Shown: in pieces, positions 29,039 through 45,636 of the stretch
Numbering within the stretch: position 1 is the stretch's first letter
Layout of the letters: every line of letters begins with the position of its first letter
Assembly: GCA_003527485.1 (NCBI GenBank)
Contig: DPXI01000088.1
Span: 209,638-273,637, forward strand
Source: Treponema sp.
GTDB lineage: Bacteria; Spirochaetota; Spirochaetia; Treponematales; Breznakiellaceae
Length of the DNA: 64,000 nt
Direction of reading: 5' to 3'
The notes under the pieces: generated by a model
What the model saw: only the letters and a program-made list of their open reading frames with translations
Database searches by the model: none
Told to the model about the DNA's origin: nothing
Program-made: the position numbers and the translations under genes

Positions 29039-30759
29039 TTACTCGAAACGCAGGCTTTCGGTCACGGGCATGCGGAGCGCCCGCAGCGTCGGCAGAATGG
29101 CGGCCGCGGCCGACAACAGGATGGCGGCGAAGCCGGTCAGCGCGATCGAAGCGGGATTCCATGCCGACTTGAACAGCGTCGCGATCCGGTATCCGAAATC
29201 CCCGCCCATCTCCGCCGCGACCGCGGAATAGTCGACTCCGTATTCGACCATCGGAATGTTGATCAGGCAGCCGACGATCACTCCCGCGACGGACCCTATC
29301 GCGCCGATGAGGCCCGCCTCGATCACGTAGGCCAGCAATATCTGCCCGTCGGTCATGCCGAGGGCGCGGAGCATCCCCGTCTCCTTGGTCCGCTCCAGGA
29401 TCGCCATCAGCATCGTGTTGGCGATCCCGATGAAGGAGAGCAGGAAAAGGAAGAATATCATCACGCGGGTGGATACGTTATCGCCGTTGGAAGCGGCGAT
29501 GTAGTCGGCCACGTAATCCAGCCAGCCGTGCGCTGCCATGCCTTCGGGGAGCCGGGGACCGAGACTCGCCGCGATCGTTTCCGCCGACTCGTCTTTTCCC
29601 GGAAGGGATGAATCGTCGGCCCCCGCCTTCCGCACGAGGAGCTCCGTGACACGTCCTTCCAGCATGAGGCCGGCCTCGTCCTGCAGCGCGTCCAACGGTA
29701 CGAAGGCCACGTTGCCGTTCGTCTTCGGGTTGGGCGAATTGACGACGCCGACCACCACGGCGTCGATAAGCTGGTTGACGTGCCGCACGGCGCCGGAGAA
29801 GTCCGCGGCGACCAAGTCGGCAAGCACGACCTTCAAAGCCGCTTCGTCCGTGGCGGCGAGGTAATAGTCGCCGGTCACCGGATCCTGGGCGTAGGCGGCC
29901 CCGATCCGGGAATGTGCAGCGTCGGAAAGGGAAGGCAGCAATTCCTTTTCGAACTTGCTCTTGCTGATCGTCTCCGGCGCCGCCTTAAGGTCGATGGTCG
30001 TGGAAATCCGCACGTCCATGCGGCCGGACACGGCCAGGATCGACCAGAATCTATCCAGCTCCTCCCTGGTCGCGTCCTTCCTGAGCGCGAGCCTGGACGC
30101 GTCACGGGCGAGCTTGACCGAATCATTGTTCGCGAACAATCCCTTTTTGCCCTTCTTCGGCACGGGCGCCGGACCGTAAAGGCTCCGGACGAATGCCGCT
30201 TCATCCTCGGTCGCCGCGGCGTCGACAAGCTCCCCGAACTCCTGGATAGTGGGCCGGTTCGGGATCCCGATGCGGAGCTTTTCCGCGGCCAGAGTGCCGA
30301 CGGCCAGCTCAAGGGCGCCCGGCCGGGGGAAGCGGCCCGATTCCATGAAGGGAACATAGCGGAGGAGCTGTTCCTCCCGCGGTACGTCCACGGCGTTGAA
30401 CTCCATCGGCGCGGTCCCCGAACGGGAATACAGGGTCCCCGAAAACACGAAGCGGGGAGCCGAATCGTACCCTTCTTCCGCGAGGGCGTCGGCGATCTTC
30501 TCCCAACCGGAGAAGCTCTCGTACATCGGAAGCTCGTCTTTTTTTGCGAAATACGCGGCGCTCTGGATCTTGGCGGCACCGATCTCGTAGGAAACAATAT
30601 TGCGCCGGGAATCCAGGTTCATGCCCAGCAGCCAGGAATCCATGAATATGTACAGCGCGACGCTGACCGCCACCGCGATCGTCGTGATCACGGTCTTCGT
30701 CTTGTGCCGCGAAAGGTTGCGCAGCGACATGAGCGCGATGTCGCGGAATCCCGCCGCGT

Positions 30760-30763
<4 letters not shown>
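29039..30763 (-). CDS. ABC transporter permease, FtsX/MacB family, long form
   Basis: 574 aa. Same topology as the downstream paralog. Confidence 0.8.
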
Positions 30764-31429
<666 letters not shown>

Positions 31430-31446
<17 letters not shown>

Positions 31447-32572
31447 CGTCCTCCTTCGTCGCGTCGCGCACGGTGCCCGTCCGCGCCTCATGGCGCCTTG
31501 TTTCCATCAAGGATTGCAGGCCGAACAAGTCCTTGGACTTCAGTTCCTCGGTTATGGAATTGGGCACGAGCATCATCGAGTTGCCTGCCTTCAGGCCTTC
31601 CGTAAGGATCGAAAGGTTCTTGAGCTTCATGGCGGTCTCGTTCGATCCGTATATCTTCGCCGCCTCTTCGAAACGGCGGGCCACTTCTATCTCCGCCTCC
31701 GCCAGGAGCACCCTTCCGCGCTTCTCCCGTTCCGCCTGGGCTACGCGGCTCATCGAATTCTGGAGTTCCTCGGGGATCTGTATGTCGGTAATCTCGATAT
31801 GCTGGACGGTGATTCCCCAATCGGTGGTTTTTTTGTCCACAGTCCCGCGGATCTGCTCCTCGATGGTCTCGCCCCGTTCCAGGAAGGTGGAAAGGTCGTT
31901 CTTGCTCACCGCCGCGCGGAGCGCCGTCTTGGAGGAGAGGACGACAGCCTCTTCATAATCCTCCACCTCCAGGATCGCCTTCTCGGCGTCCCACACGAGC
32001 CAGAAGCAGAGGGCGTCCACGGTGACCGTCACCGAGTCCCGCGTCAACGTGGTCTCGGCGGAAAAGTCGGTCACCCGGATGCGCAGGTCCACGACGCGGG
32101 CGACGCGGTCGGCGAAGGGGAACAGCAAGAAAAGGCCGGGGCCCCGTACCGCCTGGAATTTGCCGAAGCGCAGCACGATCGCGCGTTCCCATTCCTCCAG
32201 CTTCTGCACTGACGGCGCCAGGAGAGCGCCGATCGCCGAGAAGGCGAGAATGAGGCCCGCCTCCGGAAGGCCGGAAACCGCCGCGCTCCATGAGGCCAGC
32301 GCAACGGCGAAGAGGAGGAGCGACTTCACGGCGGCGCTCCAGCGCGGAAAAAGGGTCATGGCGGCCGCTCCCGCGACCGGCGCCGCGAGCAGGCCGCCGA
32401 AGGACCATACCGAAGGGACGTTTCCCGAAAGCAACCTGACCGCGATGGCGAACGCGGCAAGCACGGCCAGGAGGGCGACGCCTGCCGCGTTCAGGGAAAA
32501 ATCCCTCCGCGGCCCGCGCTTGCGCGCGTTCTTTATCAACGGCTCGACAGCCGGTTTCTTCTCAAACCACAT
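31430..32572 (-). CDS. SPFH/band-7 (stomatin/HflK-like) membrane protein
   Basis: Band-7 core …VVDLRIRVTDFSAETTLTRDSVTVTVDALCFWLV… with an N-terminal TM region. Start chosen at MWFEKKP, which has a GGAGGA RBS. Confidence 0.75.
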
Positions 32573-32972
32573 CAAGGTCCTCCTTGAAAGCTCCGACGAG
32601 GAAAGCCGCCTCATCCCTGGACGCGCCGAGCGCCGCCATTTCGCTCACGAAGCGGGCGACCTTCTCCTCCAGCTTCCGCGTTCGCGCATCGTCGTCCGGT
32701 TCGGGTTGCTTGTTCGACACGTAGGTGCCGCTCCCTACCTGGGTGACTACGATGCCCCTCAGTTCCAGTTCCCCGTAGGCCTTGGCGATGGTGTTCGGGT
32801 TGATTTTGAGCCCGATCGCCAGCGCCCTGATCGTCGGCAGCCGATCGCCCGGCAGCAGTTTTTTCGCCAGGATCGCGTGCTCGATACGCTGGATTATCTG
32901 CCGGTAGAAGGGAACCCCGCTCGCCGGGTCGAGGGCGTACATGATGTCCCGTTCCACGTTTGTACTATTCAT
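32562..32972 (-). CDS. GntR family (YtrA-subfamily, short) transcriptional regulator
   Basis: 136 aa. …GDRLPTIRALAIGLKINPNTIAKAYGELELRGIV… wHTH. This subfamily typically precedes ABC exporter operons. Confidence 0.8.
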   Translation of the reverse strand: MNSTNVERDIMYALDPASGVPFYRQIIQRIEHAILAKKLLPGDRLPTIRALAIGLKINPNTIAKAYGELELRGIVVTQVGSGTYVSNKQPEPDDDARTRKLEEKVARFVSEMAALGASRDEAAFLVGAFKEDLDVV

Positions 32973-32973
32973 C

Positions 32974-32995
32974 TAGTACAATAATAATTGTACTA
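32974..32995. promoter_or_regulatory. Inverted repeat TAGTACAAT-AATA-ATTGTACTA plus extra GTAC half-sites overlapping the GntR start. Probable YtrA-type operator.
   Basis: Seen directly. 9-bp arms. GTAC cores match the GntR T.GT…AC.A logic. Confidence 0.5.
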
Positions 32996-33072
32996 CTACA
33001 ATAAGTCAATACCAAAGCGAAAAAAAAGCCGCCCCGGTTTCCCGGAGCGGCTTGTTCCGTACGCGGTAGATG

Positions 33073-33891
33073 TTAGCGGGCGGCCTTGAGTGCCTCTGCT
33101 GCGAGCGCGAGGAAGGGGGAAACGGCGATGGAAACGCCGGTCACCGCGTCGGTCTTGCCGTCGGCCTTGACGGCGATGGAGGCGGGGTCCTGGGCCTTGA
33201 CGAGGGCGGCTTCCGCTTTGGCGGTCTGGACGTCCCACTCGGACTGCGCTTTCCCGAATTTGACCATTCCGTATTTGCCGGTCACGGATTCCGTTATCTT
33301 GGACTTCTTCTTGGCGTCGCTGGAAATGCCGTTCCAGACGGCGGAAACGACGCGGCCGTTGACCACGGTCACGAGGACGGTATCCTTCCAGGTGGACTTG
33401 GCGTCGAAGGCGGCCTGCTGGGCGTAGAACCAGCCGTCCTTCTGATAACTGCCCTTGGCCACCGGGCCCGCGGCGACGGCCTTCTTGGCCAGATCGAAGA
33501 AGCCCTTCACGGTGATCGAGGCGCCTGAGATGGCGTCGGTCTTGCCGTCGGCCTTGATCTTGGAGAAGGCGAGATCCTGGCTGGAAACGAGGTACGCTTC
33601 CACCTTCGCGGCTTCCTCCCACCATTCGCCCTGGGACTTGCCGAATTTCTTCATGTTGTACTTTCCGGCCTTGTCGTAGGCCTTCTTGTCCGCGGCGCCC
33701 GCTATGTTGCTTACGCCGTTCCAGTCGGCGGCGGCGATCTTTCCGCCCTTGACCTCAAGGACGATCTGGTCCTTCCAGCCGCTGGAGGAGAATGCTTCTT
33801 CCTGGGCGAAATAGAGCCCGTCCTTCAGGGTCTGGGCGAACGCGGTCGCGGCGAACGCGACGAGTGCGACTGCGACGATTATTCTTTTCAT
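33073..33891 (-). CDS. Secreted lipoprotein with two tandem FMN-binding (FMN_bind) domains, PplA-like
   Basis: Signal peptide MKRIIVAVALVAFAATAFA. Two about 130-aa repeats carry KDG(L/W)Y… and flavinylation-type motifs DAISGASITVKGF and DAVTGVSIAVSPF. Confidence 0.65.
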   Translation of the reverse strand: MKRIIVAVALVAFAATAFAQTLKDGLYFAQEEAFSSSGWKDQIVLEVKGGKIAAADWNGVSNIAGAADKKAYDKAGKYNMKKFGKSQGEWWEEAAKVEAYLVSSQDLAFSKIKADGKTDAISGASITVKGFFDLAKKAVAAGPVAKGSYQKDGWFYAQQAAFDAKSTWKDTVLVTVVNGRVVSAVWNGISSDAKKKSKITESVTGKYGMVKFGKAQSEWDVQTAKAEAALVKAQDPASIAVKADGKTDAVTGVSIAVSPFLALAAEALKAAR

Positions 33892-33954
33892 CTCAAATGG
33901 CCTCCATGAATAGTGTGCGGGGAACATTATAATCAATAATCCTGACACCGGGAA

Positions 33955-34749
33955 TCACCCATAACTATGGAGCCCCGGAAGCAGGTAATTGACGCCGAAA
34001 AACGTGAACACGGTGCAGACGAATCCCACCACCGCGATGGCGGAAGCCAACGCGTCCTTCCGTTTCATCACGAGGCGGACGTGCAGGTAGGCGGTGTAGA
34101 CGAGCCAGGTCACCAGGGCCCAGGTCTCCTTGGGATCCCAGCTCCACCAATGTCCCCAGGCCCGTTCCGCCCAGATCGCCCCGAAGACCAGGGCGCCCGC
34201 GGTGAAGATGGGATAGCCGACGGCTATGGCCGCGTAGGTCACCCTGTCCAGGGCCAGCCGGCGGTCCGCGTCCCCGGAGAAAAGGAAGGCGAGGGAGGAG
34301 GCGAAGGAGACGACGAAGAAGGCTTCGCCGATAAAGGAAAAAGCGACATGGAGGGCCAGCCAGGACGAATTGAGCGCGGGTATCGGCGGCAGGGCGTCCT
34401 TGGGCAACAACGGAGAAGACGCGACGGCCAGAAGCGCCGCGGCGAAGAAGGTGGAGGCGAAGGCGACGAAGGGGGAGAAGGGAATGCGCCTCTGGAAGCG
34501 GTACAGGGCGACGACGAGGGCGACGACGGCGGCGTAGAAGACGAGAGATTCGAAGGTGCTCGTAAGCGCCGCGAAGCCGATCTCGAAGCTGCGCTGGAGG
34601 GAAAAACCGAAAAGGAGCAGGGCGGCGGCGGCGAGCAGCCAGACGGAGACCGGGTCGCCTTTCCCGCCGGGGCGGAAGAGCCGGATGGCCTGCAGAGCCG
34701 CGGCCGCGAGCAGGAGGATGAAAGCGATCGCGGGGATTGCCGGTATCAT
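33955..34749 (-). CDS. ccsA: Cytochrome c-type biogenesis protein CcsA/ResC (System II)
   Basis: WGHWWSWDPKETWAL tryptophan-rich WWD haem-handling motif, multiple TM helices. Confidence 0.85.
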   Translation of the reverse strand: MIPAIPAIAFILLLAAAALQAIRLFRPGGKGDPVSVWLLAAAALLLFGFSLQRSFEIGFAALTSTFESLVFYAAVVALVVALYRFQRRIPFSPFVAFASTFFAAALLAVASSPLLPKDALPPIPALNSSWLALHVAFSFIGEAFFVVSFASSLAFLFSGDADRRLALDRVTYAAIAVGYPIFTAGALVFGAIWAERAWGHWWSWDPKETWALVTWLVYTAYLHVRLVMKRKDALASAIAVVGFVCTVFTFFGVNYLLPGLHSYG

Positions 34750-35699
34750 ACGGTCTCCTTGATTTTTCGGGCGAAGGTCACCGCGGTGCCGAGGGCCACC
34801 AGGATGAGGCCGGCGAGGACGAACTTGTATCCGGGATCGACCACCGCCTGCAGACCGGTGACGGCCTCGGCGCTCAGCGTGGCGCGCCAGGGGCCTGCGT
34901 CGACGCCGGCGCCGGAGCCTGCGGCGAGGCCGGCGCCATCGGCCGTCAGGCGGATCACCTCGTCGCTGTTCGATACCCGGAGCAAAACCGACCCCGATTC
35001 TTCGATCGTCATGAAGAAGACGGAAACTCCGCCTTCTTCATAGGTTTCGCCGCGCGCCAGCCGGTGCGTTACGCCGTCGGGCCCGATGAGCCGAACCGTA
35101 GGTTCCGAGCCGTAAGTGGCTTGGTACAACGTCAATCCGGGGCGGCGCAGGGGAGTGTTGACCCGGATTCCGCGATCCGCGACCAGGATTTTTCCCTCTT
35201 TGGCGATATCCACCACGCTGATCCAGTCCTTGGGTCTGCCGTCATCGTAACGAACGTCAGTAAAGCTTTTGAGCGTAAGGGTTTCCCCTCCTGGAAGCTC
35301 CACTCCGTCCCCGACTTTCAGGGAAACCGCCCCTTCCTTCCTTTCGGAATAGCTCACGAGCGATCCGACGACAAGCACGAGCAGCCCGACATGCAGGATA
35401 TCCGGACCATGCCGCCGCGGACCCTTTTTCCTCAGTTCGCGCGCGAGCCTTGAGACCGTGCAAGCCGACAGATTGAAGAAAAAGGCGAAGGCGGGAAACA
35501 GGAAAAGAAGCGAGGAGAAATAATGGGAAAGCCCGGTCTCAGTCACCAGCAGGGCGACGATCCGCGGATACAACTGAAAGTATCGCTCCGCGTCCAATCC
35601 CTGGGGAATCAGGGTCGCAAGCGTGGAAAAGGAGGCCAAGGCGATGATCAAGCCGATCGCAAGCCGGACGGATTTGAGGAAACGCCAGAAACTATTCAC
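34746..35699 (-). CDS. ccsB: Cytochrome c biogenesis protein CcsB/ResB (System II)
   Basis: 317 aa, ResB-like topology. Overlaps the ccsA start. Confidence 0.7.
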   Translation of the reverse strand: MNSFWRFLKSVRLAIGLIIALASFSTLATLIPQGLDAERYFQLYPRIVALLVTETGLSHYFSSLLFLFPAFAFFFNLSACTVSRLARELRKKGPRRHGPDILHVGLLVLVVGSLVSYSERKEGAVSLKVGDGVELPGGETLTLKSFTDVRYDDGRPKDWISVVDIAKEGKILVADRGIRVNTPLRRPGLTLYQATYGSEPTVRLIGPDGVTHRLARGETYEEGGVSVFFMTIEESGSVLLRVSNSDEVIRLTADGAGLAAGSGAGVDAGPWRATLSAEAVTGLQAVVDPGYKFVLAGLILVALGTAVTFARKIKETV

Positions 35700-35821
35700 T
35701 GATGCTCCTGCGGTCCGTCCGCGCGGACGGGTTATCAGCGCAGTCTATTACCCGTCCGAGAACGCTGTCAAGATATCGGCATATCGAATACCTTATATAA
35801 ATAATAATATATCTATATGAC

Positions 35822-35850
35822 TTTACATATTCAAGGAGGGGCCGTATAGT
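35822..35850 (+). promoter_or_regulatory. Sigma70-like promoter for the cytochrome c/rhodanese operon: TTTACA-17 nt-TATAGT
   Basis: Seen directly within a very AT-rich block (35770-35850). The following 5'UTR of about 120 nt contains GC palindromes, including CGCGTCG-T-CGACGCG. Confidence 0.5.
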
Positions 35851-35978
35851 GCTTTCAGGTTGCTTTCGCGCTGCGCGTCGTCGACGCGGAGCGCGGCCGT
35901 TTTCCGCGCCTGCGCCCGGGAATTCGGTCGACGGGGTTTTTCCCGCCAAGCCGCCGCGAATGAATCAGGAGGTGCCCC

Positions 35979-37202
35979 ATGAAAAAGGCGACCTTCGGGT
36001 CCTCGCTCATCCTCATCGCCCTTGTCGGGACCGGTTCCGCGTACGCCGCGGCTTCGTCCTGCCTTGATTGCCACGGCAATATCGAGACGATGAAGTCGAT
36101 GGTGAGCATGCCCGTAGCCAGTTCCGCCGAGGGGGAAGGGTGAGCGGGTGCCCCTCCCCCGGTCCGGGCGGATTATTACATGGGATACGTGGTGGATACG
36201 AAAATGGCCGCGGCGGATCCCCACTTCCAGCAGGGCTGCGTCGCCTGCCATGAAGGAAACGCTTCAGGAAAGGACAAAGCCCAGTCCCACGCGGGGCTCG
36301 TGAAACGGCCGTCCGACGATCCGTCGGTCTGCGGGACCTGCCACGAGGGCATCGCCAAGACCTATACTCTGTCCCTCCATTACTCGAACGCCGGCATGAA
36401 GAACGGCATCTCCCCGCGCTTCTCAAAGGATGAGAAACATACTTACGACACGGCCGTCTTCGAACAGTCCTGCCGGAGTTGCCACGCATCCTGCGGCGAT
36501 TGCCACGTGAAGAGTCCGGTGATTTCGGGGGTCAATACCGGCCTCATGGACGGTCACGCCTTCGTGAGAAAAGACGAATCCAAGACCTGCGCCCTCTGCC
36601 ACGGCGGGCGGGTATACCCGGAGTTCACCGGCGATTACGGCGGCACTCCGGACGTCCATTACCGCAACGGCATGACCTGCCTCGACTGCCACACGTCCAC
36701 CCAGATGCACGGGAACGGAATGTCGTACGAAGGTCGCCGGGATGTCGAAGACAAGCCTTCCTGCCTTGCCTGCCATCCGCAGGGATCGGAAAAAACCGAA
36801 GAAGCCAAGTCGGCCCATGGCGACCATGGCGAAAAGGTGTCCTGTTCGGCCTGCCATACGGCGACCGGCTACCGCCAGTGCTCATCCTGCCACCTCGGAG
36901 AAGGAGCCGCCGCGAGCCCTGCGCTCATCCTCGGCTTGAATCCGCGCAAGGAAGGCCAACTCACCACGCTGCGCCTCATCCCCACGGTGCGGTCCACCTT
37001 CGAAAAGGCCGGCATCAAGCAGATGAATTTCGATTCCGTGCCGAATCTATGGGACACGGTTCCCCACAATGTGAAGAAGAGGACCGAAAGGACCCGGGAC
37101 TGCGCGCTTTGCCATTACGAGCAGGAGAATTACCTGACGGAGGAATCGCTTCCGAAGGACGGTTCGAGCGCCAACCTCAAGTTGATTCCCGCGGGCCATT
37201 AA
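35979..37202 (+). CDS. Multihaem (11 CxxCH) c-type cytochrome interrupted by a single in-frame UGA at 36141-36143. Annotate with a recoding or pseudogene caveat.
   Basis: ATG 35979 with AGGAGG RBS. MKKATFGSSLILIALVGTGSAYA signal peptide, then CLDCH, then TGA. It continues in the same frame (AGAPPPVRADYY, MGYVVD…) through 10 more CxxCH motifs. The downstream portion alone lacks any signal peptide. Confidence 0.6.
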
Positions 37203-37225
37203 GACCTGCCGGAAAGGAGTATTTT

Positions 37226-38104
37226 ATGAAGAGAATGTTGATCGCGGCGCTTGCCCTGTGCTTCGCCGCCCCCCTGTTCGCCCGCGACGTCGAGGCGATC
37301 GTGACCGCCGATTGGCTGGAGGCCAACCTCTCGAACCCCAAGGTCGTGGTCGTCGACGTACGCAAGGTGGAAGAGTACAAGGCCGCCCACATCAAGGGCG
37401 CGGTGAACGTGCTCGGGAGCAGCCTTTACGTGCCCGCGGCAGGACTCAGCAACGAGCTGCCGAACGCCGACGACCTCTCCGACATCCTCGCCGACGCGGG
37501 CATCGACGCGTCCTCGATAGTGGTGGTGGTGGAAAGCGACAGCGCCGCGCGCTTCGCCTGGGCCACCCGCGTGGCATGGACCCTCGCCTGGGCTGGCCTG
37601 GACAACGTGGCCGTGCTCTCCGGCGGCCAGAAAGCCTGGACGGACGCGAAAAAGCCTGTGGACGCCGACAAGGTCGCGAAAGCCGCCACCAAGTTCTCCG
37701 TCAAACCGCGCAACGAATACCTGGCGCTCCTCGGCGATGTGCTGAAAAGCAAGGGGCAGGTGATCGACAACCGTACCTACGACACCTACTTCGGCATCGT
37801 CAAGCAGGGTTTCGTCGCCCAGGCCGGCCATTACCCGAACGCGATCGCCCTGCCCTCCTCATGGATCGTCGGCGCCGACGGCCTCGTGAAGTCCCAGACG
37901 GAGCTCGCCAAGATGCCCGTGCTCCTCGGCCTTGATCCCTCGGTCGACACCATCACCTACTGCGATTCCGGCGTGCTCGCCACCGGCTGGTGGTGGATAC
38001 TCCACGAGCAGCTGGGTTGGAAAAACGTAAAAAGCTACGACGGCTCGTCCCAGGACCTGACCAAGGATCCCTCGGTCAAGTACGTGACCCACGTCTGGAA
38101 GTAG
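37226..38104 (+). CDS. Periplasmic tandem-rhodanese sulfurtransferase (thiosulfate/polysulfide sulfurtransferase-like)
   Basis: 292 aa from ATG 37226 (GGAAAGGAG RBS). Signal peptide MKRMLIAALALCFAAPLFA. Two rhodanese domains. Active-site Cys in …ITYCDSGVLATGWW…. Confidence 0.75.
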   Translation: MKRMLIAALALCFAAPLFARDVEAIVTADWLEANLSNPKVVVVDVRKVEEYKAAHIKGAVNVLGSSLYVPAAGLSNELPNADDLSDILADAGIDASSIVVVVESDSAARFAWATRVAWTLAWAGLDNVAVLSGGQKAWTDAKKPVDADKVAKAATKFSVKPRNEYLALLGDVLKSKGQVIDNRTYDTYFGIVKQGFVAQAGHYPNAIALPSSWIVGADGLVKSQTELAKMPVLLGLDPSVDTITYCDSGVLATGWWWILHEQLGWKNVKSYDGSSQDLTKDPSVKYVTHVWK

Positions 38105-38202
38105 GCTATCCGGAACGGCGGCTGTCGGACACGAAGGACGCCGCCAAAAAATGAAGCCTCCGCGGCCGCCGGAAACGGCGGCTGCGGAGGATGCGGGGGT
38201 AC

Positions 38203-38259
38203 GGAGGATGGCCGCCCGACGCGGATGCGTCTTCGCGTTCCATCCTCCGCCTGTTTTTT
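38203..38259 (+). terminator. Rho-independent terminator after the rhodanese gene
   Basis: GGAGGATGG…CCATCCTCC stem followed by GCCTGTTTTTTTATC. Confidence 0.6.
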
Positions 38260-38275
38260 TATCTAAGGTATCGGA

Positions 38276-38710
38276 TCAAAAATACGCAGGAAGCTCGAAA
38301 GCGTCGAAGGCCCGGAAGTCGTCGGGGTTTGCCGTAAGTAGCGCGGTGACCCCCGCAGACCGGTACGCCGCAGCCATATGAGTATCGATGATCCGTTTCC
38401 TTCCCAATTTGAACGCGACCGTCCATATCCGGGCTTGTTCGAAGGACTCCGCGGATTGATGCACGATCCGTACCCGTCTTTGGCGCATCCAGAAATGGGA
38501 GCGGACCAAGGCTTCGGGAAAGGAAAGCGGCGAATCGAAACGCTTCGGATCCGTAACGATGTGCATGAATTCCAGAAAGACATGGTCATAAACGGCAAAT
38601 AAATTATCCGAATCGCGACGCCAGTCCTCAAAATAGCGAAGCGCCCCGGCGTGACGGGGCGACTCGATCACCTCGAGATCCACCAGGAAGCTGGTATCAA
38701 TACCGGTCAT
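38276..38710 (-). CDS. vapC: PIN-domain toxin VapC
   Basis: MTGIDTSFLVDLEV… PIN acidic residues. Overlaps the antitoxin gene by 14 nt. Confidence 0.75.
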   Translation of the reverse strand: MTGIDTSFLVDLEVIESPRHAGALRYFEDWRRDSDNLFAVYDHVFLEFMHIVTDPKRFDSPLSFPEALVRSHFWMRQRRVRIVHQSAESFEQARIWTVAFKLGRKRIIDTHMAAAYRSAGVTALLTANPDDFRAFDAFELPAYF

Positions 38711-38948
38711 CGAGCATCTCGTCCCGGAAATCCCCCAAGGCCCAATCCTTTTTTATCCCCCCCAGGGAGATCGGTTTCCAATTCTCCAATGTGCTTGCGC
38801 CCAGGATACGATTCCTCGCGTAGTCTTCCATCGCTTCTCGGATGAGCTCCGATGCTGTCCTATCGGAACCAAGCGCCGTCTCCTTGAAAAGCTGGTAAAG
38901 CGGTTCTGATACATTGATAGTAACAGGCTTCATATGGTTATCATACAT
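38697..38948 (-). CDS. vapB: VapB-type antitoxin (RHH/CopG-like)
   Basis: 83 aa, …TASELIREAMEDYA… ribbon-helix-helix. Immediately upstream of and overlapping vapC. Confidence 0.65.
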   Translation of the reverse strand: MYDNHMKPVTINVSEPLYQLFKETALGSDRTASELIREAMEDYARNRILGASTLENWKPISLGGIKKDWALGDFRDEMLDDRY

Positions 38949-39034
38949 ATATTACACGTAAAAAGCAAATATTATTACCGGAAGGCGACTGCCGCTCAGA
39001 GCCGACCCCGATTGCCTTAACTCCGCCCCGCCCC

Positions 39035-39874
39035 CTACAGCCTGTACTCAGCCCCGACTGCCAGAGGCCGGTACGCGGGAAGCCGTGCCGCCAGGGAAGC
39101 TTTCCCCGCGTCCCCGGTGCAGTGCCCGAGCGCCGCGAGGCTGCAGGAAGTTGCCCCGAGATAGTCGACCGTCGACGAAATCCGTTCCGCGTCCGCATCG
39201 ACCAGATGGGAGCCTCCGAAGACCGCGACCACCGTCTTCCCGAAAGCCTTGCGGACCGCGTCCAGCATGTTCATTATTCCGGGATGGGCGCAGCCCAGCA
39301 CCGCGGCGATGCCGCCGGGAACCTCGATCGCGAGGCAGACCTCATCCCGGAAATCGTCCATCGTCCGGCGCCCGTCCCGGTCCACCACGAATCGCGGATT
39401 CGGCCGCTCCCGGGTATGGAGGCGCGGAAAACCGTTGACCACAAAGACGCCGGGCAACGCCTCCATAAAAGCGGTATCCCCGCCGGATGCGGTGACTGTA
39501 CGGTGTTCGATCCGCCGGCTTAAAAGGAAATCTCCGTCAAAGTCCACGCCCAGATAACGGGGGGCAGGCTCTTCGTCGGCCCATTTCTTGTCGAAGAATC
39601 CGCCGCCCGTATACAGCGGTCCGTTGAAGGCGGTCCGGTCGAGAAGGGCGCGGACTCCTCCGCCGTGGTCGTAATGGCCGTGGCTGACGACCAGCGCCTC
39701 CGCCGCGCCCGGTTCCGCGCCGAGCCCGCGGGCATTGTCCAGGAAAGCGCCGCTCCCGCCGGTATCGAAGAGCAGGGACCTTCCGTCCCTCTCGACCAGG
39801 AAGCAAAGGCCGTGTTCGGCCGTCGTGCCTGCGCGTCCCGGGGAATTGTCCATGAGGGTAATAATCCGGATCAT
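39035..39874 (-). CDS. MBL-fold metallo-hydrolase, downstream of selD
   Basis: HGHYDHGGG motif. Start at MIRIITLMDN with GGAGG RBS. 21 nt after the selD stop. Confidence 0.75.
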   Translation of the reverse strand: MIRIITLMDNSPGRAGTTAEHGLCFLVERDGRSLLFDTGGSGAFLDNARGLGAEPGAAEALVVSHGHYDHGGGVRALLDRTAFNGPLYTGGGFFDKKWADEEPAPRYLGVDFDGDFLLSRRIEHRTVTASGGDTAFMEALPGVFVVNGFPRLHTRERPNPRFVVDRDGRRTMDDFRDEVCLAIEVPGGIAAVLGCAHPGIMNMLDAVRKAFGKTVVAVFGGSHLVDADAERISSTVDYLGATSCSLAALGHCTGDAGKASLAARLPAYRPLAVGAEYRL

Positions 39875-39897
39875 AGGCTCCTCAGAAAAACGGAAGG

Positions 39898-40986
39898 CTA
39901 GCCGACGACGCGGATGCGGGCGCCGTCGGCGGCGCCGCGTCCCGCGCGCGGGACGCATTCGCCGATCACCGCGAATTCCACGCCGCTGGCCGCAAGGGCG
40001 CCGAGGGCTGCTCCGAGTCCGGCGGGCGGGACCGCGGCCAACAGGCCGCCGGAGGTTTCCGGCGCGAAAAGGAGGGTCCTGAAGGCTTCGTCGGCGCAGG
40101 GAGCGCCTTCGCCTTCGAATGCGACCTTTCCCGCATACGCGTGCCGGTTACGGGCGGCGCCGCCGGGCACAAAGCCCCCGCGGACGCAGTCGGCCGCGCC
40201 CGCGATCATGGGAACGGCCGAAGCGCGCACGAGGAGATCGATCCCGCTCTTGTCAGCGAGCTCAAGGGCGTGGCCCGCGAAGCCGAAGCCGGTGACGTCG
40301 GTCGCGCTGAGGCAGTCCGCCGCCAGGAAGGCGCGCGCGGCGTCGCGGTTGAGCAGTTTCATGGAAGCCACCGCCGCCGCGAGGACCCCGGCGGGGGCGG
40401 CGCGCGACTTTGCGGCCGTAGTGATGATCCCCGTCCCCAGCGCTTTGGTCAGCACCAGGACGTCTCCGGCCCGCGCGCCGGTCTTCAGCAGGAGCCTGTC
40501 CGGCTTGCCGATGCCGAGCACGGCCAGGCCGAACTTCGGCTCGGCGTCCATGATGGTGTGGCCGCCGGCGACCGCGCACCCGGCCTCGGCGGACTTCTCG
40601 GCGCCTCCGCGGATGATCTCGGCGATGACCGAGGGATCCAGGTCGGAAGGAAAGGCGGCGATATTCAGGGCCATGATCGGCTCGCCGCCCGTAGCGTAGA
40701 CATCGGAGAGCGCGTTTGCCGCGGCGATGGCGCCGAAATCGTAGGGATCATCCACCACGGGGGTGAAGAAGTCCGTCGTGAAAATCAAGGCCGTATCGTC
40801 GTTCAGGCGGTAGACGGCGGCGTCGTCGCCTTCGGCCAGCCCGACCAAAAGGTCGGCGCGGCGCTCGGGAGGAACAAAGCCTGACAGGGGACGCAGGACC
40901 TGCGCCAGGGCCTCAGGGCCCATTTTTGCCGCTCACCCCGCCGCGGAGCAGAGCGACGTCAGCCGAACGATGTCGTCCTTGGTCAT
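39898..40986 (-). CDS. selD: Selenide, water dikinase (selenophosphate synthetase) containing selenocysteine. In-frame UGA at 40933-40935.
   Basis: Manual translation from ATG 40986 (AAGGAG RBS) gives MTKDDIVRLTSLCSAAG-U-AAKMGPEALAQ…, which aligns with E. coli LTQYSHGAG-C-GCK. The downstream region has the AIR-synthase-like fold. A GGGCCCUGAGGCCC hairpin starts 12 nt after the UGA. The ORF track lists only 39898..40923. Confidence 0.85.
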
Positions 40987-41043
40987 CGGATCTCCTTCGA
41001 GCCGAGTGTAGGGGGAGATCTGCCGTGAGGTCAAGGAAGGATT

Positions 41044-42000
41044 CTACGCTTCGCAATCCTGCAGGGATAGCCTGAGCGCTTCGGCATCGAAGTCCTTCCC
41101 GATGAAGATCATCGCGCTCAGCCGTTCCTCTCCGTTTTTCCAGGGCTTGGCCGCCAGCAGGGGGCGGCCGCCGACGTACTGCAGGATGTACTTGCTTTCC
41201 TCGGTCCGCGGGTCGGAAAAGCGCAGGAAACCCTTGGCCCGCACGACGGAACGCGGCAGGACGTCCAGGAAGGCGCTGAAACGCTCCAGGTCCAGAGGCT
41301 TCTCCGTCTTGTGGAAATAGCTCTCCACATGGGCGTGCCTGCCGCCGTGCCCGCTGCAGTACCCGCCTTCGCCGAGCTGCCCGTTCTCCAGGGCAGCCAA
41401 GTCCTCATGGTCGTAGCGGGCGCCCTCCGTCACGAGTGAAGTCGGAAAATCGGCGTCAAGCGACAGGATGCGCGCGTCCCTTTTCCGGCTCAGGATGAAT
41501 TTCCTCACACGCGCGGCCGCTTCGGGTCCGGCGAGCTCCAATTTATTCAGCAGGATGAAATCCGCGAATTCGAGCTGCTGGACAGCGATGGCAAAATCCT
41601 CGATCGAATCCAGGTAATTCAGCGTATCCACCACGCAGACGATCGAATCGAAATGGAGCCGCCCGTCGAGGTCGTTGAGAATGAAGGCCGCGGCGATGGG
41701 CACCGGATCGGAGAGGCCCGACGCTTCCAGCAGGATATGGCCGATATTTTTCCCCACCGCCAGCAAGCCTTCTATCGTTTTCACCAGGTCGTCCCGCACC
41801 ACGCAGCACATGCAGCCGTTCGGCAATTCCGCGATTTCGTTGTCCCCCGCCTCCACGATCTTGCTTTCCAGCTTCACGTCGCCGAATTCGTTCAGCACGA
41901 GGCCGAAGCGGATCTCCGGATGCTCGGCGACGATGCGGCTGATGAAGGTGCTCTTGCCGGCGCCCAGGAAACCGCAAATCAGGGTGACGGGAATCTTCAT
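41044..42000 (-). CDS. COG0523 (CobW/ZigA/YeiR-like) metallochaperone GTPase
   Basis: GFLGAGKST P-loop, GCMCC metal-binding motif, C-terminal CobW_C domain. The listed ORF extends to 42102 through the 9-nt tandem repeats. Confidence 0.8.
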   Translation of the reverse strand: MKIPVTLICGFLGAGKSTFISRIVAEHPEIRFGLVLNEFGDVKLESKIVEAGDNEIAELPNGCMCCVVRDDLVKTIEGLLAVGKNIGHILLEASGLSDPVPIAAAFILNDLDGRLHFDSIVCVVDTLNYLDSIEDFAIAVQQLEFADFILLNKLELAGPEAAARVRKFILSRKRDARILSLDADFPTSLVTEGARYDHEDLAALENGQLGEGGYCSGHGGRHAHVESYFHKTEKPLDLERFSAFLDVLPRSVVRAKGFLRFSDPRTEESKYILQYVGGRPLLAAKPWKNGEERLSAMIFIGKDFDAEALRLSLQDCEA

Positions 42001-42139
42001 AAGCGGCAGTATAAGGCCCGGCTCCGAAAACGGGCAAGGATAAACGGAATCCTGCCGGACCTGCCGGTCCTGCCGGTCCTGCCGGTACGCGCCGGAGGCC
42101 AAGCTTGACGGTCCTCCCGCCCTCGCCTAGTATTGGCGA

Positions 42140-42229
42140 GGAAGCGGATGGGGTCCGGCGGCCCCCGCGGTCTTCAAAACCGTTGGCCGCGATTCATCGC
42201 GGCGGCAGGATCGACACCTGCCCCTTCCG
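42140..42229 (+). tRNA. selC: tRNA-Sec (selC), anticodon UCA
   Basis: GGAAGCGGATGGGGTCCGG…GGTCTTCAAAACCG…long variable arm…GCAGGATCGACACCTGCCCCTTCCG. This is collinear with E. coli selC, with anticodon loop CUUCAAA (UCA at 42174-42176) and T-loop GGATCGACACC. The long acceptor stem has one C-C mismatch. Confidence 0.75.
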
Positions 42230-42247
42230 TATTTCCCCGGAGGCCCC

Positions 42248-43648
42248 ATGGAACAAGAGGACGTCAGGTCGCGTCTGCCCCAAGTCGAGCGCCTGCTCGG
42301 TCTTCCGGAGGTGTCCGCCTACTTCGAACGCATTTCCCGACCGCTCGCCGCCCGCGCGGTTTCCCGCGTCCTCGCGGCGGAACGCCAGAGGCTGACGGAA
42401 GAGCCGGACAGCGGAATCGGGGAAGACGAACTGCTCGCCGCGGTGATCGCCGCCCTGGACGAACTCGATCGAAGGCGGATACGCAAGGTCGTCAACGGTA
42501 CGGGCATCGTGCTGCACACCAACCTGGGGCGCTCACCTCTATCCCCGGCCGCCTGGAAAGACGCCGCCGAGGCTGTGGAAGGGTATTCCAACCTGGAGTT
42601 CGAGGTCGAAGCCGGAAAGCGGGGCAGGCGCGGGGGACTCTCATCCGAACTCCTGCGCGCCTTGACGGGAGCCGAGGACGCCCTGGTCGTCAACAACAAC
42701 GCCGCGGCGATGGTGCTCGCCCTCGCCTGCTTCGCGTCGGGCAAGGACGTGCTCGTGTCCCGCGGAGAGGCCGTGCAAATCGGCGGAGGCTTCCGAGTGC
42801 CGGACATACTGGCGATGTCGGGCGCGCGCCTGAAGGAAGTCGGGACCACGAACGTGACGACCGAAGAAGACTACCTGAACGCGATAGACGGCGAAACGGC
42901 AGTGGCGCTCTCCGTCCACGCTTCCAATTTCGCCATCCGCGGCTTCACGCGCAAGCCCGATCTCAGCCTGCTTTCCGCCGCCCTTCCGAAGAACGTGATC
43001 CTGATCGCCGACCAGGGCTCGGGCTGCTGCGAAGCGGGCGTGCCCGCGGAAACGCCCGTGCGCAATTACCTCCGCGACGGGGTCCGTCTGGTCTGCTTTT
43101 CCTGCGACAAGATACTCGGCGGTCCCCAGGCAGGGGCGATCGTGGGCGATGCCGCGCTCATCGCCCGGCTCTCCCGGCATCCCCTGATGCGCGCCTTCCG
43201 TCCCGGCAAGGTGACCCTCGCGGTCCTGGAGCGCTGCCTGGTCGCCCGCTTGGGGGGAAATCCCGGCAACGGCGACGAGCCTCCCGCCGGATCTCCCGTC
43301 GAGCGCGCGCTCCGCAGGACTTCGACCGAAGGCATCCATGAGCTCAAGGCGCTCGGCCGGCGCGTCATCAGGCGGCTCCCGAAAGCCTCCGCGATCCTGG
43401 TCGAATCGCGCGCGGCGATAGGCGGCGGGAGTTCCCCCGACGAGACCCTCCCCTCCTTCGCCCTGGTCCTGAAGGGCGCGCGGGGTGCTGAATCCCTGCT
43501 GGCCGCCTTGCGCCTCGGAAGGGTCCCGCTCATCGGGAGAGTGGAATCCAGCTCCGTGATCGTCGACCTGCTGACCCTCGCCGACGAGGACGACAAGCTC
43601 GTCTCGAACCTCATCCTTGAAGCCCTGGAAAAAGAGGGCGGTTCTTGA
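42248..43648 (+). CDS. selA: L-seryl-tRNA(Sec) selenium transferase
   Basis: 466 aa. …[11 protein letters not shown]… and the PLP-lysine motif [13 protein letters not shown]. Confidence 0.9.
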
Positions 43649-45636
43649 TAGTCGTCGCGCTCGCGGGCCACGTCGACCACGGGAAGACGGCCCTCGTCCG
43701 CGCGCTCACGGGAATCGACACCGACCGGCTGCCGGAGGAAAAGGCGCGGGGCATGACGACCGACCTCGGCTTCGCCGCCCTGGATCTGCCGCCGGGCGAC
43801 GGAGCTTCCGGCTCCACTCGGCCTGCCCGCAGGGTAGGCCTCGTAGACGTACCCGGCCACGAGCGCTACATCCGCAACATGGCCGCGGGAGCCTGGGGAG
43901 CCGACCTCTGCTTCCTGTGCACGGCCGCGGATGACGGCTGGATGGATCAGACCGAAAACCATTGCCGCCTCCTTTCGGCCTTCGGCCTTCCGCGCGCGAT
44001 CGTGATAGTGACCAAGATCGACTTGGTCGAAAGGAAACGCGCACAAGAAGTCGGCGCCGATGCGCGCCGGCGGGCGGCCATCATCCTCGGGGAAGCGGCC
44101 ATCGCGGAAGGCTTCATCGCGACGAGCGCGCTGACGGGCGAAGGCCTGGCCGAAACCATGGAGCTGGCCGCGCGTGAATGCGACGCCATCCTGACCGCCC
44201 GCGCCTCCGCGGGACGCGCCTCCGCGGGACGCGCCTCCGCGGAACGGGCCGCTCCTGAACGGGCCGGCGCGGGAGCGGGCGCCTGGCTCTTCGTCGACCG
44301 CGTCTTCTCCAAGAAAGGCGCGGGCCTGGTGGTCTGCGGCACCCTGCGCGGCGGCGCCGTCCGAGTCGAGGACGAGCTTGTCCTCCGCCCCGCGGGCGAG
44401 ACGCTCCGGGTCAAGGGAGCCGAAAGCCTCGGCGCGGCCGTCGGACAGGCGGAGCCGGGAGGCCGGGTAGCCTTCAACACGACCAAGCCGAAAGTGGAGA
44501 TTCGCCGCGGCGACCTGCTTTGCGCTCCGGGAGCCGCGACCTTGCAGGCGTCCGAGTTCATCGTGCGCGTGGAGGAAACCGGGCGATCTATCGAGCGCCG
44601 CGAAAAGGCCGACCGCGCGCTGACCAAGGGCGGAGAGGCCGAACTCGTCGCCGGCAGCGCGCGGCGGACCGTCCGGCTGGAACCATTCGGCAAGGGCGGC
44701 TTCTTCAGGCTCATCTGCGACGAAAAGCTGGCCGTACCGCGCGGGATCCGGGCCGCCCTCGTCCGCTCTGGAGGGGCTGAGCTCCTCGGCGCCGTTACCT
44801 TCGTCCATGCGGGTGACTGCGGAAAAGCGGGCCGCAAACGGGCGCGTGAAACTGCGGCCGCCGTCGCGACCGCCGTCGCGGCCGCCGATGCGGGCGCGGC
44901 CGCCGCCGTAGCCACCGGCGTGGCCGCGGACGGACGTTTCGCGGCCCTCGCGGTGGCGACCGCCATCGACGGGGCGACTCCCCTCGATCGGGAGGCGCTG
45001 GGCTATCTGCCCGACCCCGAGGCGCTTGAGGAGTGCGGCTTCATCGTCATCGTCGGTCATCTGGTGGACAAGCGGGCAGCCAAACCGACCCGCCCCGCCG
45101 GCGGCCCCGGGACCATGAACCCGAAGACGAACGGGAACGGTAACCGGAAGCAGGGAGACGCGACTTTCAGGCTCCCGCAGCCTGTAGCGCTCGCCCTGGC
45201 CGAAAAAGCGGCGGCAGCCACCAAAATCCGCGTTCCGGAACGGACCGGACCTTCTCCCGCTGCGCTGGACGCCGAACGCGCGCTGCGCGCCGCGGGGATC
45301 GCGGGCATCGAGCCGAACGCCGCGCCGGAGCGGGGAAAGCCGCCGCCCCCCCAACGCAAGCTCCTGGAGGAACTCTGCTCCGCAAAGCTCGCCGTGCCCC
45401 TGGACCGCGACCTCTTCTGGCATACGGAAACCTACGACCGCGCCGCGGCCTCCGTGCTTTCGGGCCTGGAACCCGGCGGGCGCCTCACCATCGCCGACGC
45501 CAAGCAGCGCGCCGGCCTTTCCCGGAAATACGCCATCCCCTTCCTGAACCGCCTTGAACGCGACGGCTGGGTCAAGCGGGACGGGGAAACCCGCGTCGTG
45601 CAGAAACGATGGACGGCGGACGGTGGAGATGAATAA
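43645..45636 (+). CDS. selB: Selenocysteine-specific elongation factor
   Basis: [43 protein letters not shown]…[15 protein letters not shown]… matches E. coli SelB closely. Long C-terminal winged-helix extension. Confidence 0.9.

Follow-up and report, generated by a model that had tools for sequence, protein, structure and literature searches.

A putative selenocysteine-containing eleven-haem cytochrome c family associated with rhodaneses, with a proposed role in sulfane-sulfur reduction

Introduction

By 2018, ExtKL of Geobacter sulfurreducens had been predicted to be a selenocysteine (Sec)-containing pentahaem cytochrome, encoded beside the rhodanese ExtH (PMC6148476, PMC5877670). The same protein (GSU2937-2936) was characterised in 2025/2026 as MccSep, a periplasmic homotetramer with five haems (PMC13510729; PDB 9wt8-9wtc; NF040886). 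Its Sec325 is located in a C-terminal immunoglobulin (Ig)-like domain, beside a haem ligated by a His and by Cys239, and the enzyme, which is essential for the respiration of elemental sulfur (S0), reduces polysulfide and also selenite (PMC13510729). The Sec of MccSep attacks polysulfide, and the extHIJKL cluster that encodes the enzyme also encodes ExtH (PMC13510729, PMC6148476). A review table from 2026 lists three families of selenoproteins with c-type haems (CXXCH), namely ExtKL (NF040886), GSU2204 (NF041027) and the octahaem tetrathionate reductases or OTR (TIGR04315), some members of the last being annotated as selenoproteins (PMC13188914). Here we analyse a gene for an eleven-haem cytochrome c, at positions 35979 to 37202 of a 64-kb stretch of Treponema sp. 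DNA (contig DPXI01000088.1; the whole stretch is called the window below), that carries an in-frame UGA after its first haem-binding motif.

Comparison with related loci makes it very probable that positions 35979-37202 are a single gene for a periplasmic eleven-haem cytochrome c in which codon 55, a UGA, is read as Sec. The broader reading, that the gene belongs to a family of Sec-containing eleven-haem cytochromes coupled to rhodaneses, for which sulfane-sulfur reduction is proposed, has in our estimate a probability of about 85%. The original prediction, made from the sequence of the window, had regarded a selenoprotein, readthrough, a sequencing error and a pseudogene as equally live explanations of the UGA. 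The balance has since moved clearly to the selenoprotein, on account of a UGA conserved in 80 of 80 related loci, a covarying selenocysteine insertion sequence (SECIS), homologues with Cys, the Sec machinery encoded nearby and the use of TGA as an ordinary stop. The original prediction had also supposed that a multihaem cytochrome dependent on Sec would be without precedent, which was already outdated given ExtKL/MccSep (PMC6148476, PMC5877670, PMC13510729).

A single gene with a conserved in-frame UGA

The cytochrome gene is complete (coordinates in Table 1). Its precursor begins with MKKATFGSSLILIALVGTGSAYA, followed after the probable cleavage site by AASS; by inspection, this N-terminus is a signal peptide. 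Past the TGA the frame continues unbroken (AGAPPPVRADYYMGYVVD...) through ten further CxxCH motifs, eleven in total, up to a TAA at 37200-37202. The segment 3' of the UGA, taken from the ATG at 36180, has no signal peptide of its own, and no Cys stands beside the UGA codon. All of this had been read from the sequence in the original prediction (ribosome-binding site AGGAGG, start at ATG 35979, signal peptide, first motif CLDCH, TGA at 36141-36143, ten more motifs, a downstream part without signal peptide and a UGA without flanking Cys), and our translation confirms it. Within the window, this is the sole open reading frame (ORF) longer than 150 aa with a CxxCH motif, and the only c-type cytochrome.

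In the databases the gene appears truncated. The public record P0001 (hypothetical protein A2413_17275 of Treponema sp. RIFOXYC1_FULL_61_9) is 100% identical, but corresponds to the 340-aa C-terminal piece from ATG 36180. A protein search retrieved 488 homologues, and 117 of the best 120 were fragments of 299 to 354 aa that covered 73-85% of the query and started just past the UGA; a second search seeded with a member from Bacillota likewise gave fragments in 120 of 120 listed matches. The family is uniformly annotated as a truncated "cytochrome c3 family protein" or "hypothetical protein" without a signal peptide, sometimes as a sulfurtransferase, so that recognising it corrects hundreds of gene models.

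A scan of genomes (one per species) with the single protein as query gave no relatives, whereas an alignment used as query recovered 517, all confirmed by tblastn. The best 80 of these 517 loci were kept, and counts out of 80 refer to them. They come from four phyla (Spirochaetota, Desulfobacterota, Nitrospirota and Bacillota), the carriers being Spirochaetota, Syntrophales (Smithella and Syntrophus included), Syntrophorhabdaceae, Geobacter sp. OR-1, Pelobacter, Desulfuromonadales, Desulfonema magnum 4be13, Nitrospirota and Bacillota. A TGA was present at the homologous codon in all 80, with the frame kept and within the motif (E/A)G(E/V)G-U-AG(A/P)PP(P/S)V, and in every one of them a hydrophobic N-terminal leader and then the first CxxCH preceded it. 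The locus of D. magnum 4be13 (L064) and that of Desulfatirhabdium (L025) carry the variant GEG-U-AGILPPV, with Leu for the first Pro of the Pro run.

Since all 80 related loci share the UGA, it is not a sequencing error. The source record is a metagenome-assembled genome, in which a sense codon (TGG, TGC or another) could have turned into TGA through a sequencing or assembly error or in a recent pseudogene. Such an accident would have to recur in 80 independent loci of four phyla, always with the frame intact and the peptide conserved on both sides, and always followed by the covarying SECIS described below; we consider its probability practically negligible.

Three database proteins are seemingly full length. 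The "W" that P0061 shows at the Sec position is a TGA translated with another genetic code, and the record of P0076, from a 2.4-kb contig, also shows W there. P0063 has a genuine GCA (Ala) codon. This last case (L081:1142-2401, GCA_023249795.1) keeps a SECIS-like stem (CCUCCGCC GGUCAG GGCGGA) after the replaced codon, and may have decayed or been put to another use. In the window itself TGA terminates selA, ccsA, ccsB and two genes of ATP-binding cassette (ABC) transporters, five of 13 neighbouring genes; since it is the ordinary stop of these genes, TGA is not reassigned in this organism.

If the UGA simply terminated translation, the gene would yield a 54-residue mono-haem peptide together with a ten-haem protein started internally, or the downstream part would stay untranslated. 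This is the model of all public gene calls, and an ATG is available at 36180, but the downstream protein, lacking a signal peptide, would be cut off from the haem-attachment machinery. There is also no conserved internal start: the first in-frame ATG varies in position between relatives, and in Geobacter sp. OR-1 it comes only after haem motif 3. Moreover, few parts of the protein are as well conserved as the residues between the UGA and the first Met (AGAPPPVRA...), which the called ORFs do not include. Considering these points, termination seems very improbable, and translation through the UGA the better account.

Eleven CxxCH motifs were found in 71 of 81 reconstructed members, and outside the motifs the residues H82, H104, H134, H193, H227, H244, H280, H283, H363, Y298, K367 and U55 are invariant, with M232 present in 80 of 81. 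No conserved Cys occurs outside the CxxCH motifs among these 81 sequences.

A covarying SECIS hairpin follows the UGA

Immediately downstream, beginning 11 nt 3' of the UGA, we found a bacterial SECIS hairpin. In the window, 36155-36161 pairs with 36165-36172, with C36169 bulged and an apical loop GUC at 36162-36164. A gapless alignment of the TGA plus 45 nt in 81 sequences (A2) places the stem at columns 15-20 and 27-32 around a six-base loop in which G22 and U23, the first two bases of a conserved Val codon, are invariant. The 11-nt spacing is the one required by the minimal SECIS of Escherichia coli fdhF. A small apical loop with a G is the feature by which bacterial SECIS elements are recognised in the field (PMC1088965). 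The original prediction had proposed a search for a SECIS in this part of the sequence; the one that emerged covaries.

Standard pairs make up 92.4% of the cells of the stem, compared with 35-65% (maximum 64.6%) when the 3' arm is slid by one to three columns, and none of 500 column shuffles matched the observed pairing values. Compensatory double changes were seen at three of the six pairs: G:C to U:A in L050, G:C to A:U in L068, C:G to G:C in L060 and L065, and C:G to U:A in L063. Several of them also alter the protein, replacing Ala by Glu, Val or Pro. Third-codon positions within the stem are frozen, T15 in 76 of 81 sequences (Pro CCU), G27 in 80 of 81 (the codon before Ala) and G30 in all 81 (Ala GCG), while those outside the stem vary freely.

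The original prediction had instead drawn attention to a hairpin with the UGA in its loop, described as a 10-bp stem (GGGGGAAGGG / CCCCTCCCCC), and had rightly remarked that it was no canonical SECIS, overlooking the true one at 36155-36172. The stem does fold, but only nine of its ten positions pair (arms 36131-36140 and 36151-36160), with one A.C mismatch, and dinucleotide-shuffled versions of this G+C-rich region are about as stable (z = 0.21). Neither is it conserved. Across the 81 sequences 66.7% of cells are paired in this register, compared with 53-56% in slid controls, there are many uncompensated G.G and A.C oppositions, at least seven contiguous pairs form in just two of 81 sequences, and no compensatory changes were found. 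We therefore rejected it as a recoding signal, on the grounds of shuffle-level stability, lack of conservation and lack of compensation. It is a by-product of Gly and Glu codons (GGN/GAR) standing opposite Pro codons (CCN), and a ribosome positioned at the UGA would be expected to melt it. Its 3' arm overlaps the 5' arm of the SECIS.

Sec/Cys exchange in distant homologues and the Sec machinery

An exhaustive search with HMMER through 1.84 billion cluster representatives yielded 544 sequences at E<=1e-3, of which 87 were at E<=1e-30. We aligned 27 distant full-length relatives, 28-36% identical and most with 10 to 12 CxxCH motifs. In eight of the 27 the Sec column itself is occupied by Cys, in a motif G-C-GG-x-x-P, and in three more a Cys stands one column off; Trp, Tyr, Ala and other residues occupy the position in the remainder. 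Two of the Trp cases were examined at the DNA level and have real TGG codons. The comparison of orthologues for Sec, Cys or Trp at this position, suggested in the original prediction, has thus given TGA in all 80 close loci, and Cys and sometimes Trp at a greater distance.

The components needed for Sec insertion are encoded nearby, as had been stated from the sequence of the window: tRNA-Sec, SelA, SelB and a SelD that itself contains Sec all lie within 2.7-9.5 kb downstream of the cytochrome (Table 1). The in-frame TGA of selD is at 40933-40935 (MTKDDIVRLTSLCSAAG-U-AAKMGPEAL...; ...SAAG-U-AAKMGPEAL), and the listed ORF starts only after it. A gene for a CobW/G3E-family GTPase (41044-42102, reverse strand) sits between selD and the tRNA-Sec gene. 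Among the related loci the sel genes adjoin the cytochrome in just three. The features by which selenoproteins are recognised (PMC1088965), that is, a conserved UGA with conserved flanks, a downstream SECIS, homologues with Cys and a Sec machinery, are all found here.

Readthrough without Sec, whether by a near-cognate tRNA (for Trp, Cys or Arg) or by reassignment of UGA, would agree with the real TGG codons aligned to this position in some distant homologues. It conflicts with the role of TGA as a normal stop in five of 13 neighbouring genes, with the maintenance of a SECIS in which the loop G-U never varies and the stem shows compensatory changes, and with the complete Sec system, Sec-containing SelD included, encoded nearby. 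Nor would it explain the retention of UGA in 80 of 80 loci, given that a sense codon would serve more efficiently. We hold such readthrough to be highly improbable and Sec insertion the reading to be preferred.

The rhodanese partner and the genomic neighbourhood

Directly downstream of the cytochrome is a gene for a tandem rhodanese, with weak matches to the models of 3-mercaptopyruvate sulfurtransferase and ExtH. The same arrangement was found in 66 of the 80 loci. One homologue, P0151 (715 aa, with Tyr at the Sec column), is an eleven-haem protein that continues at its C-terminus into two rhodanese domains (PF00581, 129 bits) and is a "Rosetta-stone" fusion for the partnership. The operon of P0150, a homologue of the Cys type, also encodes a rhodanese and a membrane protein of cytochrome b561 type, and the sole Sec-to-Ala variant found (L081) has no adjacent tandem rhodanese, its next gene coding for a 665-aa multihaem cytochrome. 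A functional partnership of the cytochrome with the rhodanese is, in view of this, probable. The pairing is not universal, since no rhodanese was present in the fetched downstream sequence of L064 (~7 kb) or L025 (~3 kb).

In 15 to 19 loci of Desulfobacterota the pair is extended by three further genes, which code for a 660-aa cytochrome with seven or eight CxxCH motifs, a second rhodanese, of 255 aa and double, and a 624-aa fusion of c-haem motifs with a cytochrome b561/FdnI-like membrane domain. The extended loci are of Syntrophales type (L027, L035, L037, L039, L046-L050, L053-L055, L058-L062, L070, L071, L074 and L077); the extension lies ~2-7 kb past the TGA, and its layout recalls the ext cluster of Geobacter. 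A relative of the Trp type adjoins Fer4 and NrfD genes. Fer4/NrfD modules and c-haem/b-type membrane modules are typical quinol-oxidising inputs. Some Smithellaceae/Syntrophaceae (L030, L052) have instead, at +1.4 to +3.7 kb from the TGA, a flavocytochrome c with a twin-arginine translocation (Tat) signal and a small six-haem cytochrome; a flavocytochrome c homologue was also seen in L032 (TIGR01813, 484 bits).

Some of the fragment records (P0036, P0047, P0080, P0097) were named "thiosulfate/3-mercaptopyruvate sulfurtransferase" by the Joint Genome Institute (JGI), a label that was probably carried over from the neighbouring rhodanese. DealDRAFT_1917 of Dethiobacter alkaliphilus bears the same mislabel and is up-regulated on thiosulfate (PMC10376724). 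The protein has 10 CxxCH motifs and lacks a signal peptide; its Pfam matches are those of the window protein, and its gene adjoins one for a rhodanese. No entry named Dethiobacter came up in the second homologue search, so that the membership of DealDRAFT_1917 in the family, though probable, is not confirmed by sequence, and its regulation is a lead in favour of a sulfur role.

On the other side of the cytochrome, the window encodes the two system II cytochrome c maturation proteins, CcsB and CcsA. The cytochrome has what is expected of a substrate of this system (CcsBA): a signal peptide, 11 CxxCH motifs and adjacent genes for CcsA and a ResB-like protein. The ccsBA pair adjoins the cytochrome in 12 to 14 of the 80 loci, nearly all of them from spirochaetes. 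Next to it, at 33073-33948, is a gene for a lipoprotein resembling flavin mononucleotide (FMN)-binding proteins, with a weak PplA-type match. Cytochrome, rhodanese, ccsBA, lipoprotein and the whole Sec machinery form a compact island of ~13 kb (33073-45636). The ~930 nt between the rhodanese gene and a gene for a metallo-beta-lactamase-fold protein (39035-39958, reverse strand), that is, 38105-39034, contain short ORFs only, with no Pfam match; the Rfam scan of 30000-45000, the one search made for RNA genes, found none in this interval.

Table 1. Features of the cytochrome locus, in positions of the window
Feature	Position	Strand	Evidence or remark
CcsA, haem lyase/exporter subunit, motif WGHWWSWDPKETW	33955..34749	-	TIGR03144, 183.7 bits vs cut-off 187.6
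CcsB, ResB-like, system II cytochrome c maturation	34746..35699	-	PF05140, 85 bits
Ribosome-binding site AGGAGG	35967..35972	+	Direct sequence reading; 6-nt spacer before ATG 35979
Undecahaem cytochrome c gene, complete, 407 residues, putative Sec at residue 55	35979..37202	+	Translation
Signal peptide MKKATFGSSLILIALVGTGSAYA, probable cleavage after AYA	35979..36047	+	Inspection of translation
First haem-binding motif CLDCH, residues 28-32, 5' of the UGA	36060..36074	+	Translation; kept in relatives
UGA-in-loop hairpin GGGGGAAGGG / CCCCTCCCCC of the original prediction	36131..36160	+	Not a functional element
In-frame UGA, codon 55, putative Sec55, motif EGEG-U-AGAPPPV	36141..36143	+	Homologous TGA in 80/80 loci; Cys in distant homologues
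Bacterial SECIS hairpin	36155..36172	+	Local fold -9.1 kcal/mol; covariation in 81 sequences
Tandem rhodanese, periplasmic, 292 aa, signal peptide, C-terminal active-site loop C-DSGVLA	37226..38104	+	PF00581, 94 bits, two stretches
SelD, selenophosphate synthetase, Sec-containing	39898..40986	-	TIGR00476, 338 bits; upstream translation
tRNA-Sec, anticodon UCA	42139..42230	+	ARAGORN; Rfam RF01852, 63.9 bits
SelA, selenocysteine synthase	42248..43648	+	TIGR00474, 447 bits
SelB, Sec-specific elongation factor, SECIS-binding	43645..45636	+	TIGR00475, 228 bits vs cut-off 242

Proposed function

The association with rhodaneses, adjacent in 66 of 80 loci and once fused, points to a sulfane chalcogen as substrate. 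We propose, with even odds and partly by analogy with described enzymes, that the cytochrome is a Sec-dependent reductase of sulfane sulfur (polysulfide or thiosulfate). In the scheme that we envisage, SelB and Sec-tRNA(Sec), both encoded 6-9.5 kb downstream, would read the SECIS at 36155-36172 and decode the UGA, and the full-length precursor would be exported through its signal peptide and receive its haems from the adjacent CcsBA. With polysulfide, thiosulfate or S0 (or a selenium analogue) as donor, the rhodanese would bind sulfane sulfur as a Cys-persulfide, and the selenolate of Sec55 would attack this persulfide, giving an Se-S adduct beside a catalytic haem. Two electrons from the haem chain would then release sulfide from the adduct. 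In relatives, the quinol pool would feed the haem chain through the membrane b-type cytochrome or the NrfCD-like modules.

Alternatively, Sec may be inserted into a protein with another task, for instance a reductase of selenite, tellurite or other oxyanions, an enzyme of the nitrite/hydroxylamine reductase type, or an electron-transfer cytochrome for extracellular acceptors with a haem tuned by Sec. MccSep also acts on selenite (PMC13510729), and OTR, the sole fold match of the family (see below), is described as reducing nitrite and hydroxylamine too (title of Atkinson et al. 2007, cited in PMC8840924; PMC13510729). The window protein has weak Pfam matches to MtrC/MtrF domains and weak NCBIfam matches to cytochromes of the Ext clusters. 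Set against the tight and repeated association with rhodaneses, a role of this kind seems unlikely, though not far-fetched, and reduction of sulfane sulfur is the function we prefer.

As regards the active site, Sec55 might be the distal axial ligand of a haem, or lie over an open catalytic haem without a Cys partner, in an OTR-like fold; we put this forward as a rather doubtful possibility. Eleven haems stand against nine invariant His outside the motifs, the nearly invariant M232 and the invariant Sec, a count that is arithmetic only. Were Sec55 indeed to ligate or face a haem, the family would provide a natural His/Sec-coordinated haem centre and a second, mechanistically distinct class of multihaem selenoenzymes. 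Together with its dedicated periplasmic rhodanese, such an enzyme might then be the reductase so far missing from sulfur/thiosulfate respiration in Syntrophales, Syntrophorhabdaceae, groundwater Spirochaetota and some Bacillota.

Several observations weigh against the reading of the locus that we favour. The window carries a "CCCCC" variant in which the simple register of the SECIS has a C.C mismatch, so that the helix re-registers and needs a bulged C; the stem also lies inside the codons of a conserved Pro-rich peptide, and part of its conservation is at the protein level. Compared with Rfam at E up to 1, positions 30000-45000 gave only the tRNA-Sec and no SECIS family, which is unsurprising for elements so short and lineage-specific. 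A downstream rhodanese is lacking in 14 of the 80 loci, the complete genome of D. magnum (L064) among them, and the 64-kb window has no obvious quinol-oxidising partner. With no conserved partner Cys, the scheme of MccSep (a Cys-ligated haem and an Se-S-S(Cys) intermediate) is not transferable unchanged. The structure model, made for the Ala-variant homologue P0063, is moderate (pLDDT, the predicted local distance difference test, 70), with the Sec segment below 50. Finally, the substrate is deduced only from the rhodanese association and from analogy, and the whole case, for selenium incorporation, for a full-length product and for enzymatic activity, is comparative throughout.

Comparison with known systems

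Like MccSep/ExtKL, the window family consists of periplasmic multihaem c-type cytochromes with a single in-frame UGA that is read as a stop in the databases, where the genes are split. Both have a SECIS-like hairpin right after the UGA, homologues with Sec or Cys, and an adjacent gene of the rhodanese family (ExtH in the case of MccSep). In both, the Sec is placed in a loop rich in Gly and Pro (DG-U-P in MccSep, EG-U-AGAPPP in the window family), and a chemistry on sulfane chalcogens is probably common to the two. However, the window family has eleven haems and MccSep five, and its Sec, at residue 55, falls between haem motifs 1 and 2 (G-U-A-G) instead of in a C-terminal Ig-like domain. No conserved Cys outside the motifs is equivalent to the haem ligand Cys239 of MccSep, and the taxonomic centre also differs, the window family being centred on Syntrophales, Syntrophorhabdaceae and Spirochaetota.

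Sequence searches give the same picture. The MccSep chains 9wt8/9wt9, although present in the library, were matched neither by phmmer (E up to 1) nor by the family profile (E up to 10), and the window protein had no match to NF040886, NF041027 or TIGR04315 at E up to 0.01. A search of NCBIfam assigned it to no specific family, with sub-threshold matches of the ExtM, ExtN and NrfB types only. Membership in the MccSep, OTR and GSU2204 families was rejected, since none of the models matches and the eleven haems differ from the five of MccSep and the eight of OTR.

A Foldseek search of the P0063 model against the PDB gave no match. The sole fold match is OTR of Shewanella oneidensis (PDB 1sp3), with 17% identity over the aligned residues of a model of moderate quality, and no match to 1sp3 or TIGR04315 was detected at the sequence level. 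The window family may be remotely related in fold to OTR, a family whose catalytic haem has as its ligand a Lys that is not part of the CxxCH motif.

The rhodanese also has counterparts. ExtH, like the window rhodanese, is a periplasmic protein of rhodanese fold encoded with a reductase of sulfur compounds that acts in respiration, a putative one in the window; ExtH is a lipoprotein, whereas the window protein, the probable partner of the cytochrome, has tandem domains of the mercaptopyruvate/thiosulfate sulfurtransferase type and a signal peptide. Sud of Wolinella succinogenes is a periplasmic sulfur carrier of rhodanese type that feeds a respiratory reductase. In TsdA and SoxAX, a chalcogen nucleophile at a c-type haem makes or breaks S-S bonds, as we propose for the window family (PMC13510729, PMC5146829). 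These enzymes ligate the haem by a Cys, while the only conserved chalcogen residue of the window family outside the CxxCH motifs is Sec55.

Apparently, then, this is a separate family of multihaem selenoproteins that had not been catalogued as such. Multihaem selenoenzymes have been a characterised class only since 2025/2026, with MccSep, and the window locus would represent a second, unrelated family. Through it, the redox metabolism of sulfur in the periplasm of syntrophs and spirochaetes would be linked to the availability of selenium, and cultured carriers exist (Geobacter sp. OR-1 and Desulfonema magnum 4be13). Next to MccSep, it offers a natural comparison for the cooperation of Sec and haem in the cleavage of S-S bonds.

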